A stretch of DNA of 64,000 nt from assembly GCA_964481235.1 (NCBI GenBank), contig CAYZYH010000004.1, positions 2,124 through 66,123 of the forward strand, given 5' to 3'. The DNA is from an uncultured Candidatus Saccharibacteria bacterium (lineage in GTDB: Bacteria; Patescibacteriota; Saccharimonadia; CAILAD01; BJGX01). A program made the position numbers and the translations under genes. Below, piece after piece: positions 3,165-64,000 of this stretch. Every line of letters starts with the position of its first letter. Position 1 is the first letter of the stretch. The notes beneath the pieces were generated by a model. That model saw only the letters and a list, made by a program, of their open reading frames with translations. It searched no databases and was not told the origin of the DNA.

Positions 3165-4058
3165 ATGAAAGATTTTTCTTTTACTGCTCAAGAAGCGCAG
3201 GAGGGTAAGCGAGTAGATTTTGTATTGGCTGAAACTTACCCCAAGTTTAGTCGTGCTAGATGGAGAGAACAAATACAGTCGGGCAGAATAAAGGTTGATA
3301 GCAGGGCAGTAAAAGCATCAGAAAAATTGAAGAATGGTTCTCTAATAAATGGTGAATTCCCCACAATAAGTAACCAGAACTTGTTGATTAGCCCTGATTC
3401 AGTGCCAGAAATTATCTACAAAGACGAAGATGTGTTGGTTATAAATAAGCCCACTGGATTAGTAGTTTATACTACAACTAACAACCCACAACCATCAGTA
3501 GCAGGGGCTTTTAAAAGCTTAATTAACGATAGTGATCCAGTAAGACCAGGTATTGTGCATCGTTTAGATAAAGATACTTCTGGTGTAATGATTCTGGCTA
3601 GAAACGATCACGCCAAGGAATTTTTATTATCGGCTTTTAAACAGAGAAGAATTGAAAAACACTATACAGCTTTAGTGGTAGGGAGACCCAATAATGATCG
3701 CGCTAGACTGGAGTTACCAATCAAGCGTGGTATAAAAAATCCACAGAAGATGAGCATACACAGTTCTGGCAAGTCGGCAATAAGTGAGTACCAACTTATT
3801 AAGGAGTACAATGGCTATAGCTTACTAGATGTCTCAATTCTAACTGGTCGCACGCACCAAATTAGGGTACAATTTGCACATATTGGTCACCCGATTGCTG
3901 GTGACAAACAATATGGAAATAAAAAAGCTGATAGTCTATTTACGAGACAATTTCTACATGCTAGCTCAATAAGTTTAGAGCTACCATCTAGAAAACCGAA
4001 AGTTTTTAAGGCTAATCTACCTGCCGATTTAGAAAATATTTTAACTAAACTATCATGA
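3165..4058 (+). CDS. RluA-family pseudouridine synthase (RluD-like)
   Basis: S4-like N-terminus. Catalytic motif HRLDKDTSGVMILARN and a C-terminal …HQIRVQFAHIGHPIAGDKQYG. Confidence 0.8.
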   Translation: MKDFSFTAQEAQEGKRVDFVLAETYPKFSRARWREQIQSGRIKVDSRAVKASEKLKNGSLINGEFPTISNQNLLISPDSVPEIIYKDEDVLVINKPTGLVVYTTTNNPQPSVAGAFKSLINDSDPVRPGIVHRLDKDTSGVMILARNDHAKEFLLSAFKQRRIEKHYTALVVGRPNNDRARLELPIKRGIKNPQKMSIHSSGKSAISEYQLIKEYNGYSLLDVSILTGRTHQIRVQFAHIGHPIAGDKQYGNKKADSLFTRQFLHASSISLELPSRKPKVFKANLPADLENILTKLS

Positions 4059-58999: not shown

Positions 59000-59030
59000 A
59001 AACCCAAACCTTTCGGTTTGGGTTTGGTAT
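58998..59030. terminator. Hairpin terminator shared by convergent genes (aaacccaaacc-tttcg-gtttgggttt)
   Basis: Perfect 11-bp stem, seen directly. Confidence 0.6.
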
Positions 59031-59031
59031 G

Positions 59032-59508
59032 TTATCGCTGCTTGTAACGCCTTCGAGCAACGATTCCAACACGATACCTGCTGAAGTAGGGGACGTAGCG
59101 CTCAATGAAGTCAGCTCTAGAGGGTACAATCTCTACCAAAACAAGATCTGGGAGATGCTCAATGAGCTGCTCAAAGTGCTCTACAGAAAAGCTACTGGTG
59201 ATATGTACGCAGTCACGATCTCTTGGAATGGTTGTGACTGCTTCGCGGTACGGGTCCCACTTCCAAATGCCCTTACAGGGTCTTTTTGGTGCCAGGATAA
59301 TGTCTCGCTCTTTTTTAATGTGTTGCTTCTTCTTTTTGCCGTCACCACTACCACTACACTTATCACACCAGCTCTTGGGAACCGGCGGAAAGAAGTGTTC
59401 GCATTCTTCTGGATCTTCGGTATCTAGCTGGATTGTTGCTTGACTGCTAAGTATGTCTGTCAAGACTGCTCCTTGTATGGGCGTTGAAGCAACTTTAATA
59501 TACCACAA
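59032..59508 (-). CDS. Hypothetical Cys/His-containing protein (158 aa). Coding strand uncertain
   Basis: GC-richer DNA with long ORFs on both strands. The minus ORF is longest, has an ATG, and ends at the shared terminator. It contains CDKC…H…C…CVH, a possible zinc-ribbon. Confidence 0.3.
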   Translation of the reverse strand: MWYIKVASTPIQGAVLTDILSSQATIQLDTEDPEECEHFFPPVPKSWCDKCSGSGDGKKKKQHIKKERDIILAPKRPCKGIWKWDPYREAVTTIPRDRDCVHITSSFSVEHFEQLIEHLPDLVLVEIVPSRADFIERYVPYFSRYRVGIVARRRYKQR

Positions 59509-59535
59509 TACAACAGTTATGTAAATACTTATAGT

Positions 59536-60099
59536 CTATTGTTTTGAACTGAAAAACTGTAAGAAATTATTATCTTTACTCAGTAGATTAGTTTCTTCTT
59601 GGCACCAGGGCGTGAACTCGGTAGTCTTGTCGCTTTGAGTACTAAAAGTAAGCCAGTCTACCCACCTTGTATTCATTACCTCTTCTGTATTGGGGGTGGG
59701 TTGAGAATTGTGTCTAACCACCATTACTGGGCAAAACTCATTTTCAACTACACCTTGGCGTTCGGCGCGGTATCTGTAGTTAGGAAAGATATTTATAATA
59801 CTTTGTTTATCAACATCTATACCAAGCTCGTACTTTAGTCTACGTACAGCAGCTTGTTCTACATCCTCATCGGGCAAAGGATGACCACAGCAAGTATTAC
59901 TCCATACTCCGGGCCAGGTGATTTTCTGCATAGAACGCTGTTGCAAGAGTACTTCTCCCTTGTCATTAAACAAAAAAACCGAAAAACCTCTATGTAACGG
60001 AGTGCTTTTAGTGTGTACAGTAGCTTTTTCAGTAAGCCCAATTGGAGTATTGCTTTCGTCAACTAAAATTACCGGCTCTTTATAGGTGGTTGTATTCAT
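59536..60099 (-). CDS. idi: Isopentenyl-diphosphate delta-isomerase, type 1 (Nudix)
   Basis: …HRGFSVFLFNDKGEVLLQQRS…KITWPGVWSNTCCGHPLPDE… is the IDI-1 signature. Confidence 0.85.
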   Translation of the reverse strand: MNTTTYKEPVILVDESNTPIGLTEKATVHTKSTPLHRGFSVFLFNDKGEVLLQQRSMQKITWPGVWSNTCCGHPLPDEDVEQAAVRRLKYELGIDVDKQSIINIFPNYRYRAERQGVVENEFCPVMVVRHNSQPTPNTEEVMNTRWVDWLTFSTQSDKTTEFTPWCQEETNLLSKDNNFLQFFSSKQ

Positions 60100-60147
60100 A
60101 TGCTACATTTTATACTTTGATTTGTCGCCATACAAGTTAATTATTTA

Positions 60148-60182
60148 ATGTAAAACCCCCGCTAGCAAAGCTAGCGAGGGTT
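60148..60182 (-). terminator. Intrinsic terminator on the minus strand at the 3' end of the GC-rich noncoding transcript
   Basis: Minus strand reads cccucgcuagc-uuu-gcuagcggggg followed by UUUU. Confidence 0.65.
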
Positions 60183-60880
60183 GAGTGGGGTTGTGAGAGA
60201 GTTAGGTCAGGCTCTCCCGATGCCGTCTTCATACCACGCCTGCGAAGCGTAGACAGCTTTGACCGTACATCACTGGTTTTACCCAATGTGGAGCTCTACG
60301 CCCCAGATCTAGTATGAGATCTTTATCCCCAAATCGTCTTCTTGATCTCTGCGCTGGCCGGCGCTTCGATCATGTCTAGGTGGTTATCCTAGACTTCCTT
60401 TTTACAAACACTCTGCTTCCCACGCAGTGTGCTCTTAAGGAATGGCCCTACGACGATTTAGTTTCCCACGCTTTCCATTCAACAGGTATGTTGATTGGTC
60501 TCCAATAACAGGCGCGTGAGTGGTCTTGGCACCCAGCCTTGCGAGCTGAGAGCTGTTCCACCTGCCTTTTCCGACTTTCATGAGTTGGCGCTCAATCAGT
60601 CACTAACTACCTTTGCCCCACCAAGGACTCGGCCTCTACTATTTCGCGTTTGGTCCCCCAAAAGGGCGCTACGTAGGTAGAGTGGAGATCTGGATAAGGA
60701 CAATGTCCCAACCCTGCGTGCACCCGGAGACAGGTGCTTTACGCATATCGACTCTCACGAGTCTGTCGGGCACTCCACAGCCCTGTTGTAAATTACTAAA
60801 AGTGTTAATAAATTACAACAGAACTGCAGGGTGGTTAGTTAATTATTTTATAAGGTGCAAAACTTCTGTTTTGTTTCTAC
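60150..60880 (-). ncRNA. Large GC-rich structured noncoding RNA candidate (~730 nt). Possibly RNase P RNA with extra sequence, or an unclassified large ncRNA
   Basis: About 750 nt with no ORF ≥60 aa on the minus strand and GC well above the flanks. Minus-strand σ70-like promoter at 60916-60888 (ttgact-17-taagat) and intrinsic terminator at 60148-60182. Weak RNase P-like motifs in order on the minus strand (GAAAGUCGG…GGCAGG…GGGUGCCAAG…GAAAGCGUGGGAAAC…ACGCUUCG). No match to rRNA, tRNA-like or SRP signatures by eye. Confidence 0.35.
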
Positions 60881-60887
60881 AAATACC

Positions 60888-60916
60888 ATCTTAGCAGAGT
60901 ACCAATAAAAAGTCAA
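60888..60916 (-). promoter_or_regulatory. Sigma-70-like promoter on the minus strand (ttgact-17 nt-taagat) driving the GC-rich ncRNA
   Basis: Seen on the reverse complement of 60888-60916. Confidence 0.4.
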
Positions 60917-61046
60917 TAGTCTTTGACAAAAAAGTTTTAAAATTACTGATTTTCTCGATATAAGATTATAGTATGTTAAAAACATAAGCATAATAGTGTC
61001 ATATTTTACTAACATATTCTGTAGCTATATAAAAACTCCCTCTAAA

Positions 61047-61697
61047 TCAAGAAGGAGTGGGGTTAAAACTACGGCCCATATTGGACCAAGGGTCGTTTTT
61101 ACTGAGTGGAAACTCATAAAACACTCGAGCACTCCACATATCGCAGGTATGGCAAAAAACCGCCAGCGGTGACATAGTACGAGCATTTGGAGAGTAGTCT
61201 TTATCTCTAATGCCTTCAACAAAGTGTAATGCATGCCAATGTGCGTCACTTAGCTCTATCTCGTACTCGGTAATGAGTCGCTTTTTGAATAATTCGCGGT
61301 TTGCCTTGCTTTCCATATTTGGTGCTATTAAGAATTTGCCATCTTGGCTGGTCTCTATAGAGCCATCATAATCAAGCTGTATTCGCCAGGCCTTCTCAAT
61401 ATCGTGCAAGAACAGCACCACAAGAGCATCAGACAAACTAAATTGTTCATCAACAGGTAGTAAACTCATACGCCCAGTGAAGGCGATAAAACGAAAAAGT
61501 TGTACCGCTAGGTTCATTACTTCTAGTACGTGGTCTAGGTATCCACCTCGCCAGGCTTGATGATTATGTGTAGAGCCTGGAGAGTTTTTAATACGCCAGT
61601 TGTTATCACTCAATACTTGCTGTAGACGGGCCCTATATGGCTCATCAATCATCGCCAGAAGTTCTTCTATGTCGTGGTAGGTTAGAGATTTACTCAT
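61047..61697 (-). CDS. HD-domain metal-dependent phosphohydrolase
   Basis: H…HD motifs (…GGYLDHVLEVMNL… and …VLFLHDIEK…) as in YfbR-type HD hydrolases. Confidence 0.6.
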   Translation of the reverse strand: MSKSLTYHDIEELLAMIDEPYRARLQQVLSDNNWRIKNSPGSTHNHQAWRGGYLDHVLEVMNLAVQLFRFIAFTGRMSLLPVDEQFSLSDALVVLFLHDIEKAWRIQLDYDGSIETSQDGKFLIAPNMESKANRELFKKRLITEYEIELSDAHWHALHFVEGIRDKDYSPNARTMSPLAVFCHTCDMWSARVFYEFPLSKNDPWSNMGRSFNPTPS

Positions 61698-62226: not shown

Positions 62227-62401
62227 GTATAAACTCCTTTTGAGGTACGACTGGTTTACAGTATTCACTCTAGTAGAATGATTATGCGATAATACCACTT
62301 AATCTTTACAAAATCAAGGATTGTTTACAAAATAAATAGCGCCTTTAGGATATTCCTAAAGGCGCAGTTTTTAGAGTAGATTATACTCTGGTTTGAAGGG
62401 A

Positions 62402-62644
62402 CTAACCCCAGCAGCTACCACAGCCACTTGCTTGCAAGTGGGTTAGGCGTAGAGCCAATTTTCTTGCCCGTCGATTCGCCTCATCCTCTTCAACAGTCTC
62501 ATCTGCTTCTAGGATTTCGTCGATTTCATCAAGCAATCTATCGGTCTCTGCCAAGTCGTGTGCCTCGTCTGAGCGTTTTGGGGTTTCAACTACTTCGGTA
62601 TCTTCTCGCGGGCGAGATTCGCGCCGCTTGAGCACACTACCCAC
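62402..62644 (-). CDS. Small acidic protein with Pup-like helix motif and C-terminal SGCGSCWG
   Basis: …AETDRLLDEIDEILEADETVEEDE… matches the Pup helix TDDLLDEIDDVLEENAEDF at about 12/20 positions, but ends …ASGCGSCWG instead of GGQ/GGE. Paralogous to the ORF at 63809-64000. Confidence 0.45.
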   Translation of the reverse strand: MGSVLKRRESRPREDTEVVETPKRSDEAHDLAETDRLLDEIDEILEADETVEEDEANRRARKLALRLTHLQASGCGSCWG

Positions 62645-62722
62645 TTGGATACCTCCTATCTCAAGCTGAGTTGAGTGGTATTATACATGGTTATGTATAA
62701 TAAATCAAACCCTCGTTAGCTA

Positions 62723-63226
62723 CTACGGGGTAGGTGAGAGGTCGTCTCCTAGGAGCATGTCGAACCCGCCACCGTCACCACCAAGCAGGCGTGCCAGTGG
62801 TGAGTCTACGTTCATCTTAGGGACGATACTCATGTCGTCCTCCAGGCTTCTGTACGCTCGACTTGCCGCAACATCTACGGCATAACCAGCAAAGTTGTTC
62901 ATCACCGAGGATGCCACAACAGCCTGGACCAGCTTGGGCGTGATCTCCAGCTCGAGGGTAACCTCTACGCGAAGCTCAACTCGGTATCCAAGAAGCTCTT
63001 GTACATAAAGCGTCTCAACAACAGTACTGCCTTCGGCCAGCTCATACTTGAGGTCGAGATGGTTCAGAGAGGGGATGAGTGGCGAGGTGACAGCCTGGAC
63101 AGCTTCCTTGAGCATGTCGTCCATCATGAACCCATCGTTTTCATCACCAATCATTTCTTCGGCAACAACAACCAAGTTGACGTTGACAGTTCCCTTCGAG
63201 AAGGGGTAACTCATAGCCAGTTGCAT
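62723..63226 (-). CDS. Hypothetical protein (167 aa), acidic C-terminal Gly/Asp-rich tail
   Basis: Intact ORF in the GC-rich island (…RVELRVEVTLELEITPKLVQAVVASSVMNNFAGYAVDV…GGDGGGFDMLLGDD). No family recognised. Confidence 0.4.
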   Translation of the reverse strand: MQLAMSYPFSKGTVNVNLVVVAEEMIGDENDGFMMDDMLKEAVQAVTSPLIPSLNHLDLKYELAEGSTVVETLYVQELLGYRVELRVEVTLELEITPKLVQAVVASSVMNNFAGYAVDVAASRAYRSLEDDMSIVPKMNVDSPLARLLGGDGGGFDMLLGDDLSPTP

Positions 63227-63479
63227 GTCTTGCTCCTTTACCTATCCAGGGCAGACAATTACCCACTTACCTGTAGTGCACTTTATTTATGCATACAAGA
63301 TAGGCTTACAAAACACAACATAATATGTTCTAAAAGCCTATCTCGCGCACATATTGAATTTTTAAAAATCATACAGTTTCGTCTTTTTTAGACTCATCAG
63401 GCTGAATACACATTCAGCGACTGCACCAGTTCTTTTCATGAGTGAACTGGCAATATCTCGTTGTTTTTACTATGAAAAT

Positions 63480-63821
63480 CTAGTTGGGCTCGGCAATTAC
63501 TGCGATAGATCTAAATATTAGGCCCGACATAACTGCAGCCAGAGCTACAATCATCATGGCCGAAACAAATAGATCTAGCACCAGTAGATCAGAATCTACC
63601 ACTCTTGGCTGGTAGATGGCTACTGCCGCAAAAGCCAACCAGTGGCTAGTACAGTAAGGGCAACTAAGCAGTTCACCAAACCATTCGTTATGGGCTTTTA
63701 CCCACAAGCGCAACGTCTTGGTTACCTTGGTCTTGGTAATAGTCATCGACATTGCCGAGACCGCCAAGGCTAGCATAACTACACTAACCACTTGAGTGGA
63801 GAGATCGTTCAATCCCAACAC
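63480..63821 (-). CDS. Small membrane protein with glutaredoxin-like CPYC motif (DUF1360-like)
   Basis: Three hydrophobic helices. …LLSCPYCTSHWLAF… sits between helices 1 and 2. Overlaps the upstream small Pup-like ORF by 13 nt. Confidence 0.4.
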   Translation of the reverse strand: MLGLNDLSTQVVSVVMLALAVSAMSMTITKTKVTKTLRLWVKAHNEWFGELLSCPYCTSHWLAFAAVAIYQPRVVDSDLLVLDLFVSAMMIVALAAVMSGLIFRSIAVIAEPN

Positions 63822-64000
63822 CCACAGCCACTACGCTTGGTGGGTTCAGTTGTCATTGTGCTGTTGAGAGCACGATCAATGGCATCAAGCGCACTATCAA
63901 CCTCAGGGACTTCCTCACGGACGTCCTCAAGGTCTTCAAATGTGCTATTGCTACCATTATCTCTAGGCTTACGGGTACGACGCGTGTCGAAAATCGACAT
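63809..64000 (-). CDS. Small acidic protein, paralog of 62402-62644 (Pup-like helix, C-terminal SGCGCWD). ATG at window edge
   Basis: …VPEVDSALDAIDRAL… and C-terminal …KRSGCGCWD share architecture and C-terminal motif with the other small ORF. N-terminus also Arg/Lys-rich. Confidence 0.4.
   Translation of the reverse strand: MSIFDTRRTRKPRDNGSNSTFEDLEDVREEVPEVDSALDAIDRALNSTMTTEPTKRSGCGCWD

Follow-up and report, generated by a model that had tools for sequence, protein, structure and literature searches.

In the window (the whole 64,000-nt stretch of DNA that was analysed), a GC-rich block lies between a gene for a protein with a weak HD match (E 0.095; termed HD-like here) and a NUDIX-type idi gene (PF00293, E 2e-22). 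The other neighbours examined encode a 158-aa Cys-motif protein and a TreT-like glycosyltransferase. The GC content of 60150–60836 is 0.511, compared with a window mean of 0.396 (sd 0.031, 687-nt windows), and values of at least 0.51 are reached by only 0.4% of the 687-nt windows. At the upstream edge of the block, GC falls sharply to 0.236 (60837–61018). The tRNAs of the window (GC 0.53–0.61) are similar to the block (0.51) in this respect. No other stretch of the 64 kb without ORFs of at least 100 aa is as long as 60100–61046 (947 nt); the next largest, of 698 nt, is the tRNA cluster. A GC-rich, ORF-free island between idi and the HD gene, as described in an earlier note on this DNA, is thus confirmed. 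The features discussed in the following are:

60137–61018, no strand: insertion of approximately 882 nt between the terminator of the HD-like gene and the idi promoter (blastn and alignment against the relatives L007 and L008)
60888–60916, minus strand: sigma-70-like promoter TTGACT-17-TAAGAT with TG before the -10 element, i.e., an extended -10 (consensus scan, 9/12 matches plus TG)
60837–60851, minus strand: left 15-nt direct repeat, ATAAAATAATTAACT in minus-strand reading, abutting the 5′ edge of the GC block (repeat search)
60150–60836, minus strand: GC-rich, ORF-free block of 687 nt, predicted body of a structured RNA (composition, fold z, no Rfam, protein or Pfam match)
60602–60839, minus strand: predicted 5′ domain, multi-branched, closed by ACUAAC/GUUAGU, with GUGA and GGGA tetraloops (MFE)
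60775–60829, minus strand: predicted long 5′ hairpin of about 24 bp including 4 G-U pairs, with an AU-rich apex (MFE helices 32–48/70–86 and 50–56/62–68)
60184–60562, minus strand: predicted 3′ domain of 379 nt, closed by GGUGG/CCACU, with about ten hairpins (MFE, z)
328–333/637–642, 345–353/618–626, 388–395/609–616 and 400–409/523–532 (RNA numbering), minus strand: predicted nested long-range helices of the 3′ domain (MFE)
60150–60182, minus strand: terminator-like hairpin AACCCUCGCUAGC-UUU-GCUAGCGGGGGUU, then UUAC (sequence and MFE)
60135–60149, minus strand: right 15-nt direct repeat, ATTAAATAATTAACT in minus-strand reading, abutting the 3′ edge of the GC block (repeat search)
60107–60135, minus strand: putative idi promoter TTGTAT-17-TAAAAT, downstream of the insertion and kept in L007 (aligned sequences)

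Several searches support that 60150–60836 is non-coding. The longest ORF has 49 aa on the minus strand and 93 aa on the plus strand, and reading through TGA, TAG or TAA, as in alternative genetic codes, opens no long ORF in the region. A search of 5.8 billion proteins with a 671-aa concatenate of all stop-free frames gave no hit at E ≤ 10, ten frames of the region gave no Pfam match, and in an exact look-up none of the region's ORFs was a called protein in any assembly. Four matches obtained with HMMER for a 95-aa frame against 1.84 billion representatives were rejected as artefacts; they are translated tandem repeats or LRR-like repeats, aligned in 5–6 stretches. The six frames of the block hold neither a coding-frame trace nor a fragment of a transposase or integrase. 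A significant protein hit revealing a degraded gene had been named in the earlier note as an outcome that would speak against an RNA; no genuine match emerged at the protein level. A degraded protein gene, or one or several small proteins (55-aa ORF 61015..60848; 48–49-aa ORFs on the minus strand), would nevertheless fit the presence of short ORFs, and a 55-codon open frame is somewhat unusual in DNA with a GC of 0.24. Besides the searches just described, two observations argue against this explanation: no convincing Shine-Dalgarno sequence can be read ahead of the short ORFs, and the predicted promoter falls within the 55-aa ORF. We consider it very improbable.

Transcription of the minus strand is predicted to start near 60880–60884. 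The promoter TTGACT-17-TAAGAT, already proposed in the earlier note, is present and has an extended -10; it is situated within the segment of GC 0.24, 37 nt upstream of the left direct repeat. Since such matches are common in AT-rich DNA (14 promoter-like matches were found here, 7.6 were expected), it is only plausible that this promoter is real. At the other end, the hairpin 60182..60154 consists of 11–13 bp, is GC-rich, has the loop UUU and is followed by UUUUAC with four U. It was not listed in a terminator consensus scan because its U-tract is short. The former description as a "clean intrinsic terminator" therefore holds for the GC-rich hairpin and the UUUU, but "clean" was slightly generous. 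Found at the two ends, the promoter-like site with its extended -10 and the terminator-like hairpin would fit a stand-alone unit.

Alternatively, the block could be a long cis-acting leader or regulatory element of the downstream gene idi, as it shares the strand of this gene and immediately precedes it, and a hairpin with a short U-tract could permit read-through. However, the spacer ahead of idi measures 75 nt in L007 and 17–240 nt in other relatives and contains no such leader, and no riboswitch or leader family of Rfam matches beyond chance level at E ≤ 10. Further, the promoter-like TTGTAT-17-TAAAAT (8/12 matches, below the threshold of the promoter scan) lies 3′ of the insertion and is shared with L007, which suggests that idi is independent of the inserted unit. 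A role as idi leader appears highly improbable.

For a syntenic comparison, loci that encode homologues of idi or of the HD-like protein were retrieved. In the closest relative, L007 (GCA_964552475.1; amino acid identity of 91% for HD and 82% for idi), about 11 nt are found at the insertion site; homology to the window ends at 61019 and picks up again at approximately 60136. The same absence was detected in L008, an independent Logan contig, so that two independent assemblies of the closest relative agree. Nor do L009, L010, L011–L015 and L016 carry the RNA in the region upstream of idi or in that downstream of HD. The gene located between HD and idi in L009 is the homologue of the window's 158-aa gene and not an RNA. 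With a terminator on one side and a promoter on the other, the insertion lies in intergenic DNA and interrupts no host gene. Because it is absent at the same locus in the closest and in more distant relatives, the inserted unit would be dispensable and possibly recent, and an accessory rather than a housekeeping gene is the best explanation. An assembly artefact is refuted by the block sequence, which is identical in three independent assemblies. The sole other copies of the block that were found are 100% identical; among these near-identical strains, 947 nt contain 0 differences (expected about 1.3), an SNP density too low to be informative.

Direct repeats, as known from target-site duplications or att cores, are present at both edges of the GC block, and the right repeat ends at the right edge of the insertion. 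The two 15-nt repeats agree at 14 of 15 positions, a match which arises between the AT-rich flanks in 1.5% of shuffles, and ATWAAATAATTAACT has only two exact copies in the window. Both the insertion and its exact bracketing by 15-nt repeats are new with respect to the earlier note. An insertion absent in the closest relative, combined with repeats bracketing its GC-rich body, suggests that foreign DNA arrived in the AT-rich spacer by integration or transposition. The block, lacking coding capacity, encodes no recombinase or transposase, the repeat search reported no terminal inverted repeats, and a second copy was found neither in the window nor in related loci. A 10-nt repeat, GAGTGGGGTT (60183/61055), was rejected as a deletion scar, since a repeat of this kind is expected by chance and the L007 junction does not agree with it.

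The minus-strand fold of the block reaches z-scores of −7.1 to −7.7 against shuffles, compared with −4 to −5 for the plus strand; 22 values obtained as controls in other parts of the window lie between +2.1 and −4.6. On one strand, thermodynamic stability thus exceeds what composition accounts for, with the caveat that the fold z-score is not fully specific here, because the neighbouring protein-coding stretch 59000–59535 reaches −5.2 and −6.7, largely from its own terminator hairpin. The latter stretch was rejected as a second ncRNA; it holds the conserved 158-aa gene, with in-frame indels. The arms of the long 5′ hairpin are only 76% complementary at the DNA level, and its stem would accordingly pair better as minus-strand RNA. 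Without this hairpin, the core of the 5′ domain is weak (z −2.45). The 3′ domain, folded alone without terminator and long hairpin, has a z of −5.77 on the minus strand versus −1.22 on the plus strand, an asymmetry which G-U pairs selected in RNA would produce, and its MFE and centroid structures are almost the same. Nearly all controls have a higher positional entropy and a smaller share of confident pairs than the block; against its own shuffles, the entropy of the block is only about 1 sd better. The predicted fold contains 2–3 GNRA tetraloops (shuffle mean 0.23), and the A-richness of unpaired bases did not discriminate block and shuffles. These predictions support an RNA-like signal on the minus strand, in the form of an unusually stable and well-defined fold.

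Known RNA families were searched using cmscan with Rfam 15 (4227 models), applied to the window at gathering score and to the region at E ≤ 10, as a whole and separated into its two domains. No family was found for the block at either threshold, whole or by domain, apart from chance-level matches to miRNA, His-leader and snoRNA models at E ≤ 10. This search, which had been recommended in the earlier note, also left SRP and 6S RNA without a match at E ≤ 10. ARAGORN predicted 0 genes in 59900–61200 and hence no tmRNA or tRNA-like element, tmRNA was also without an Rfam match at E ≤ 10, and TRF reported nothing in the region. A divergent RNase P RNA, considered previously, could account for GAAAGUCGG and short purine-rich motifs, whose order on the minus strand is plausible; the motifs listed at that time (GAAAGUCGG, GGCAGG, GGGUGCCAAG, GAAAGCGUGGGAAAC and ACGCUUCG) are indeed all located there in the order given. 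However, no bacterial A/B, archaeal, nuclear or type T model matches at E ≤ 10, and the P4 consensus strands GAGGAAAGUCCGG (CR-I) and ACAGAAnnCGGCUUA (CR-V) do not occur within 3 mismatches in 60100–61000; in the rest of the window, they are matched no more often than by chance. Approximately 730 nt would be about twice the usual length, and a housekeeping RNA would hardly be located on an 880-nt insertion that the closest relative (L007/L008) lacks at this site. We regard the RNase P reading as effectively refuted.

A divergent member of another described large RNA or ribozyme family (OLE, ROOL, GOLLD, HEARO/omega-RNA, raiA, tmRNA or an ORF-less group I/II intron) is hardly credible either. 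A size of 600–800 nt, an ornate multi-junction fold and an accessory, possibly mobile context would be like ROOL, GOLLD and ORF-less introns. Nevertheless, the models of OLE, ROOL, GOLLD, HEARO and raiA, and those of group I/II introns (RF00028, RF00029, group-II-D1D4), gave no match at E ≤ 10, which leaves the earlier suggestion of an OLE/ROOL/GOLLD-class RNA, as well as membership in HEARO or the introns, unsupported. As background, RF00028 represents some group I subgroups poorly. The intergenic site offers no exons to splice. Neither IscB/TnpB, nor reverse transcriptase or prophage genes are among the flanking genes examined, and the Pfam tables of the neighbours contain none of the partners of OLE, ROOL, GOLLD or HEARO (prophage/tRNA, OLE proteins, IscB).

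Homologues of the region were sought at the nucleotide level as well. blastn in distant mode detected no match in phages, plasmids or E. coli genomes. Eighteen degenerate patterns, obtained by back-translating stop-free translations of the RNA region used as pseudo-proteins, were searched on both strands of viral, GTDB-genome and JGI-metagenome collections and gave only chance seeds; an exact 15-mer scan of viral contigs yielded 64 chance seeds, 0 of which extended. A literature search found no described large ncRNA from Saccharibacteria or Patescibacteria. The lack of conservation among related genomes, which the earlier note had held to be damaging to its reading, was observed at the syntenic site and in every collection searched. 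Having no homologue in these collections, and hence no support from conservation or covariation, counts against a functional RNA gene; in our estimation it lowers the case for one but does not remove it.

Based on these results, the reading we favour, at a confidence somewhat short of an even chance, is a stand-alone gene for a structured ncRNA of a new family, specific to this lineage and probably acquired by horizontal transfer. A highly structured ncRNA of about 730 nt would be transcribed from the minus strand, starting at the TTGACT-17-TGnTAAGAT promoter (approx. 60881) and stopping at the hairpin and U-tract (60182–60150). It would comprise two domains, a 5′ domain opening with the long hairpin and a 3′ domain (379 nt) with a compact multi-junction fold, and may act in trans as a scaffold, RNP component or ribozyme. 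We infer transcription, a real fold and trans action as RNA, the latter by analogy with other large bacterial ncRNAs. The weak 5′ core, the common promoter type and the short U-tract count against an RNA gene. Of the interpretation given in the earlier note, the non-coding character and the structured-RNA signal on the minus strand stand, in contrast to the resemblance to RNase P.

The main rival is non-functional foreign DNA, i.e., a mobile or integrative remnant or a fragment from another organism, whose fold and signals would be incidental. Consistent with this, the insertion is missing in the nearest relative, it is an orphan in every collection searched, and 15-nt repeats at the edges of a GC block are typical of integration or transposition; adjoining coding DNA also reaches z-scores of −5 to −6.7, and promoter-like matches are frequent in AT-rich DNA. 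On the other hand, the asymmetry of the 3′ domain (−5.77 versus −1.22) is not predicted by DNA-level or random sequence, six frames contain no coding-frame or transposase/integrase trace, the window has no second copy, and reduced, gene-dense genomes would rarely keep about 0.9 kb of junk. We judge non-functional DNA to be unlikely, yet a serious competitor. Quite improbable is a miniature, protein-free mobile element carrying a new-class structured RNA as its sole cargo, with selection on the function of the RNA and found in one Saccharibacteria-like lineage so far. Integration of such an element at a 15-bp AT-rich core would leave direct repeats, and its RNA might be a ribozyme or a ROOL/GOLLD-like self-assembling scaffold, or might make use of a recombinase provided in trans.

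If the transcript and fold of the favoured ncRNA gene are real, a new family of large (>700 nt) bacterial ncRNA would be added, and its host would be a reduced-genome, epibiotic CPR-type bacterium. To our knowledge, almost no regulatory or accessory RNAs have been described in CPR-type epibionts. Its origin, a recent, repeat-flanked and protein-free insertion, would be unusual. Large ornate RNAs are rare, and several have proved to form unexpected RNA-only assemblies. The near-identical loci with and without the insertion, in this strain and in GCA_964552475.1, would provide a natural comparison for function. Should the block not be transcribed, it amounts to foreign DNA within a spacer, and interest would be limited to DNA uptake in this lineage.

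Among known systems, rnpB resembles the block, whose predicted RNA is likewise large and structured, contains a GAAAGUC-like motif and forms long-range helices, but the block has no covariance-model match, misses the P4 strands, is about twice as long and is part of an insertion which the nearest relative lacks. ROOL, GOLLD and OLE are large ornate bacterial ncRNAs with functions still to be established, and their families are defined by hundreds of covarying homologues; ROOL and GOLLD occur in prophages. The block resembles ROOL, GOLLD and OLE in its size (600–800 nt), its predicted multi-junction fold with GNRA loops, its apparent organization as a stand-alone unit and its accessory, patchy distribution in a possibly mobile context (for ROOL and GOLLD, PMC12286853). 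In contrast, it does not match their Rfam models at E ≤ 10, has no tRNA, prophage or OLE-associated protein genes among the neighbours examined here, and is a single sequence where theirs number hundreds of covarying homologues. ORF-less group II (class C) introns are likewise structured non-coding insertions of about 700 nt in a spacer downstream of a terminator. The block differs from them in having no match to domain V/VI or D1–D4 and no GUGYG...AY boundaries, in lying about 180 nt from the HD terminator instead of directly after it, and in its flanking 15-nt direct repeats, which are not a product of retrohoming. Small integrative elements with att-core repeats differ in other respects: no integrase or excisionase is encoded by the flanking genes examined here, the block is only 687 nt long, non-coding and without a second copy, and no empty site with a single repeat is seen, L007 being without all 882 nt including the left repeat. 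What these elements, such as those with the lambda-type 15-bp AT-rich core, share with the block is AT-rich 15-nt repeats placed at the exact edges of a compositionally foreign sequence.

Between idi and the gene of an HD-like protein, a block at 60150-60836 has a GC content of 0.511, compared to a window mean of 0.396 (sd 0.031, 687-nt windows). A GC content of 0.51 is reached by only 0.4% of the 687-nt windows in the 64 kb; the tRNAs of the window range from 0.53 to 0.61, and the 182 nt directly upstream of the block (60837-61018) have 0.236. The largest gap without ORFs of at least 100 aa in the 64 kb is found here (60100-61046, 947 nt; the second-largest is the tRNA cluster), where the longest ORF of the minus strand has 49 aa and that of the plus strand 93 aa, and readthrough of TGA, TAG or TAA opens no long frame in the region. 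The GC-rich, ORF-free island described in the earlier note is therefore confirmed. A GC content of approx. 0.51-0.52 recurs in just one other stretch of the window (62300-63300), which is protein-coding (genes of 80 and 167 aa) and is kept in the closest distinct relative (L007, GCA_964552475.1); thus, high GC alone is no marker of RNA genes in this genome. Of the flanking genes, idi is of the NUDIX type (PF00293, E 2e-22; homologs named isopentenyl-diphosphate isomerase), and the other encodes a 216-aa protein with a weak HD match; the best named relatives belong to Saccharibacteria/Patescibacteria. The following elements were located:

60916..60888, minus strand: promoter-like TTGACT-17-TAAGAT with TG ahead of the -10 (sequence scan)
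60851..60837, minus strand: left copy of a 15-nt direct repeat, ATAAAATAATTAACT
60839..60602, minus strand: predicted 5' domain, starting with a hairpin of approx. 24 bp including four G-U pairs
60562..60184, minus strand: predicted 3' domain with GGUGG/CCACU closing, four nested long-range helices and about ten hairpins
60182..60150, minus strand: terminator-like hairpin AACCCUCGCUAGC-UUU-GCUAGCGGGGGUU, then UUAC (sequence and MFE)
60149..60135, minus strand: right copy of the direct repeat, ATTAAATAATTAACT

The site proposed earlier as a sigma70-like promoter is present. The "clean" intrinsic terminator stands only in part: the hairpin exists, but it is missing from the list of a consensus terminator scan because its U-tract is short.

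Protein similarity exposing a degraded GC-rich gene, which the earlier note had set against its RNA proposal, was not found. Of 5.8 billion proteins, none matched a 671-aa concatenate of all stop-free frames of at least 35 aa on both strands at E<=10, ten frames of the region had no Pfam match at E<=1, and no called protein in any assembly corresponds to the region's ORFs. Searched exhaustively with HMMER against 1.84 billion representatives, the longest frame hit four proteins, which were judged artefacts because they are translated tandem repeats or LRR-type repeats aligned in 5-6 stretches. We see no evidence of a degraded gene in the sequence, and a small-protein or degraded gene is quite unlikely.

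The stability of the predicted fold was compared with shuffled sequences. The minus strand of 60140-60890 folds at -282 kcal/mol (z -7.7; plus strand -3.95), and separate shuffles of 60150-60839 gave z -7.1 for the minus and -5.1 for the plus strand. Among 22 control values from 690-nt windows elsewhere, z ranged from +2.1 to -4.6, the most negative one including a tRNA; the neighboring coding stretch 59000-59535 reached -5.2 and -6.7, mostly due to its terminator. Since strong terminal hairpins can inflate z, the core was folded by itself. Without terminator and long 5' hairpin, the 3' domain (379 nt) has z -5.77 on the minus and -1.22 on the plus strand, and its centroid and MFE structures are almost the same; the core of the 5' domain scores weakly (z -2.45 vs. 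-1.52). Nearly all control windows do worse than the region in positional entropy and in the share of high-confidence pairs, but its advantage over its own shuffles is only about 1 sd. MFE tetraloops comprise GUGA, GGGA and a C(GCAA)G-type loop, with an average of 0.23 GNRA loops in shuffles. This intrinsic evidence from a single sequence supports the minus-strand structured RNA proposed in the earlier note.

A covariance-model search, as suggested there, assigned the region to no known family. None of the 4227 models of Rfam 15 matched it at gathering score, and at E<=10 the region, whole or as two domains, gave only chance-level miRNA, leader and snoRNA matches, but none to RNase P (all types), tmRNA, SRP, 6S, OLE, ROOL, GOLLD, HEARO, raiA, group I/II introns, riboswitches or small ribozymes. 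Membership in the OLE/ROOL/GOLLD class, considered earlier, is thus not borne out, and a divergent member of any described family is very improbable. RNase P-like motifs are indeed present, but they do not make up an RNase P core. The P4 consensus strands are absent from the region within three mismatches, and RNase P RNA is hardly credible. ARAGORN found no tRNA-like or tmRNA element in the region, and tandem repeats were not found there either. In the literature, we found no large ncRNA described in Saccharibacteria or Patescibacteria.

Elsewhere in the window, Rfam matched a type III hammerhead ribozyme (RF00008; 63371-63426, minus strand; 48.6 bits, gathering score 48.5) in the spacer that separates a 167-aa gene from a DUF1360 gene. 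L007 has the same match at 2525-2579 (49.2 bits), and the spacer is 95% identical compared to approx. 80-87% for flanking DNA, which suggests a conserved ribozyme within an operon. Nearby, paralogous small proteins of 63 and 80 aa are encoded at 63809-64000 and 62402-62644 (both minus strand; L007 counterparts 1953-2144 and 3313-3558). Their Pup-like match (PF05639, E 0.003) is weak; they share a conserved D..LD.ID motif and a Cys-rich C-terminus that is invariant, GCG(S)CW[G/D], and adjoin genes of a 549-aa AAA ATPase and a DUF1360 membrane protein, an arrangement kept in L007. For a CPR bacterium, this could be an unusual system of Pup/ubiquitin-like tagging or of peptide precursors. An ordinary feature is the match to the L10 ribosomal protein leader (RF00557; 45460-45582, plus strand; 44.4 bits, gathering score 44) upstream of an rplJ-like gene.

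The region is 100% identical in two Logan assemblies of other samples, whose genomes are approx. 99.9% identical overall; the region is therefore not an assembly artefact, and the comparative information of these copies is nil. In L007 (HD-like protein 91%, idi 82% identical), gene order is unchanged and the spacer has only 75 nt, an empty site confirmed by an independent Logan contig (L008). Homology of both to the window ends at 61019 and restarts at approx. 60136. The window thus carries an insertion of approx. 882 nt (60137-61018) replacing about 11 nt of the relative. It is also absent at the corresponding places in more distant relatives (L009, L010, L011-L015, L016); the conservation among related genomes named as a check in the earlier note is lacking at this locus, and parsimony favors a gain in the window's lineage. 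The insertion separates the terminator of the HD gene from a promoter-like TTGTAT-17-TAAAAT, which is kept in L007, apparently a short distance upstream of the start codon of idi; idi is therefore probably independent of the inserted unit, and a leader for idi is highly improbable. Two short Logan contigs from the sister runs SRR16481187 and SRR16481186, L003 starting at window 60179 and L006 ending at 60976, each break approx. 40 nt within the insertion, from opposite sides, which could reflect low coverage, strain heterogeneity or repeat structure. A neighboring 158-aa ORF (59032-59508, minus strand; CxxCxGxG-like motif) is called on opposite strands in different Logan assemblies; in-frame indels and mostly synonymous-type differences to L007 mark it as a real gene. 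In L009 its homolog sits between the HD-like gene and idi, so the locus is rearranged among relatives.

The insertion is composite: a 167-nt AT-rich part, in which the promoter-like site lies, precedes the 687-nt GC block. A 55-codon open frame in the part with GC 0.24 (60848-61015, minus strand) is without Shine-Dalgarno sequence, overlaps the predicted promoter, is not a called protein in any assembly, and is probably spurious. The 15-nt direct repeats bracket the GC block exactly, both abutting the compositional boundary; an equally good match between the AT-rich flanks occurs in 1.5% of shuffles, and the window holds only these two copies. A target-site duplication or an att core would leave repeats placed in this way.

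In the collections searched, the region is an orphan. No homolog came up in phages, plasmids or E. coli genomes (blastn, distant mode), in IMG/VR, GTDB species genomes or JGI metagenomes (18 back-translated patterns from both strands), or in the window and all fetched loci (sensitive local search); an exact 15-mer gave 64 chance seeds in IMG/VR, of which none extended. The pattern scans demand near-exact runs of about 16-18 specified bases and may therefore miss relatives under roughly 80% identity.

Tentatively, at slightly less than even confidence, we favor an accessory stand-alone gene, acquired with a small repeat-flanked insertion, whose product would be a structured RNA of approx. 730 nt and of a new family. 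The promoter at 60916-60888 would drive transcription, which would stop at the 60182-60150 hairpin, and the RNA would presumably act in trans. Of this reading, the composition, the missing coding capacity, the strand-specific stability of the fold, the insertion, the direct repeats and the orphan status are shown; transcription, the fold as such and a role in trans are inferred. Its chief competitor, inert DNA of foreign or mobile-element origin, is possible but clearly less probable: it accords with the recent origin and the complete lack of conservation, but is at odds with the difference between the strands in the 3' domain and with the fact that coding remnants are wholly absent. A miniature mobile element with a large functional RNA as sole cargo seems doubtful; the repeats would fit it, but searches of the region, window and fetched loci (protein/Pfam, repeat, local) found no recombinase, terminal inverted repeat or second copy. 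If the accessory RNA gene is real, it would add a new family to the large structured bacterial ncRNAs of unknown function, a known general kind, among which its unusual trait would be the protein-free, repeat-flanked insertion.
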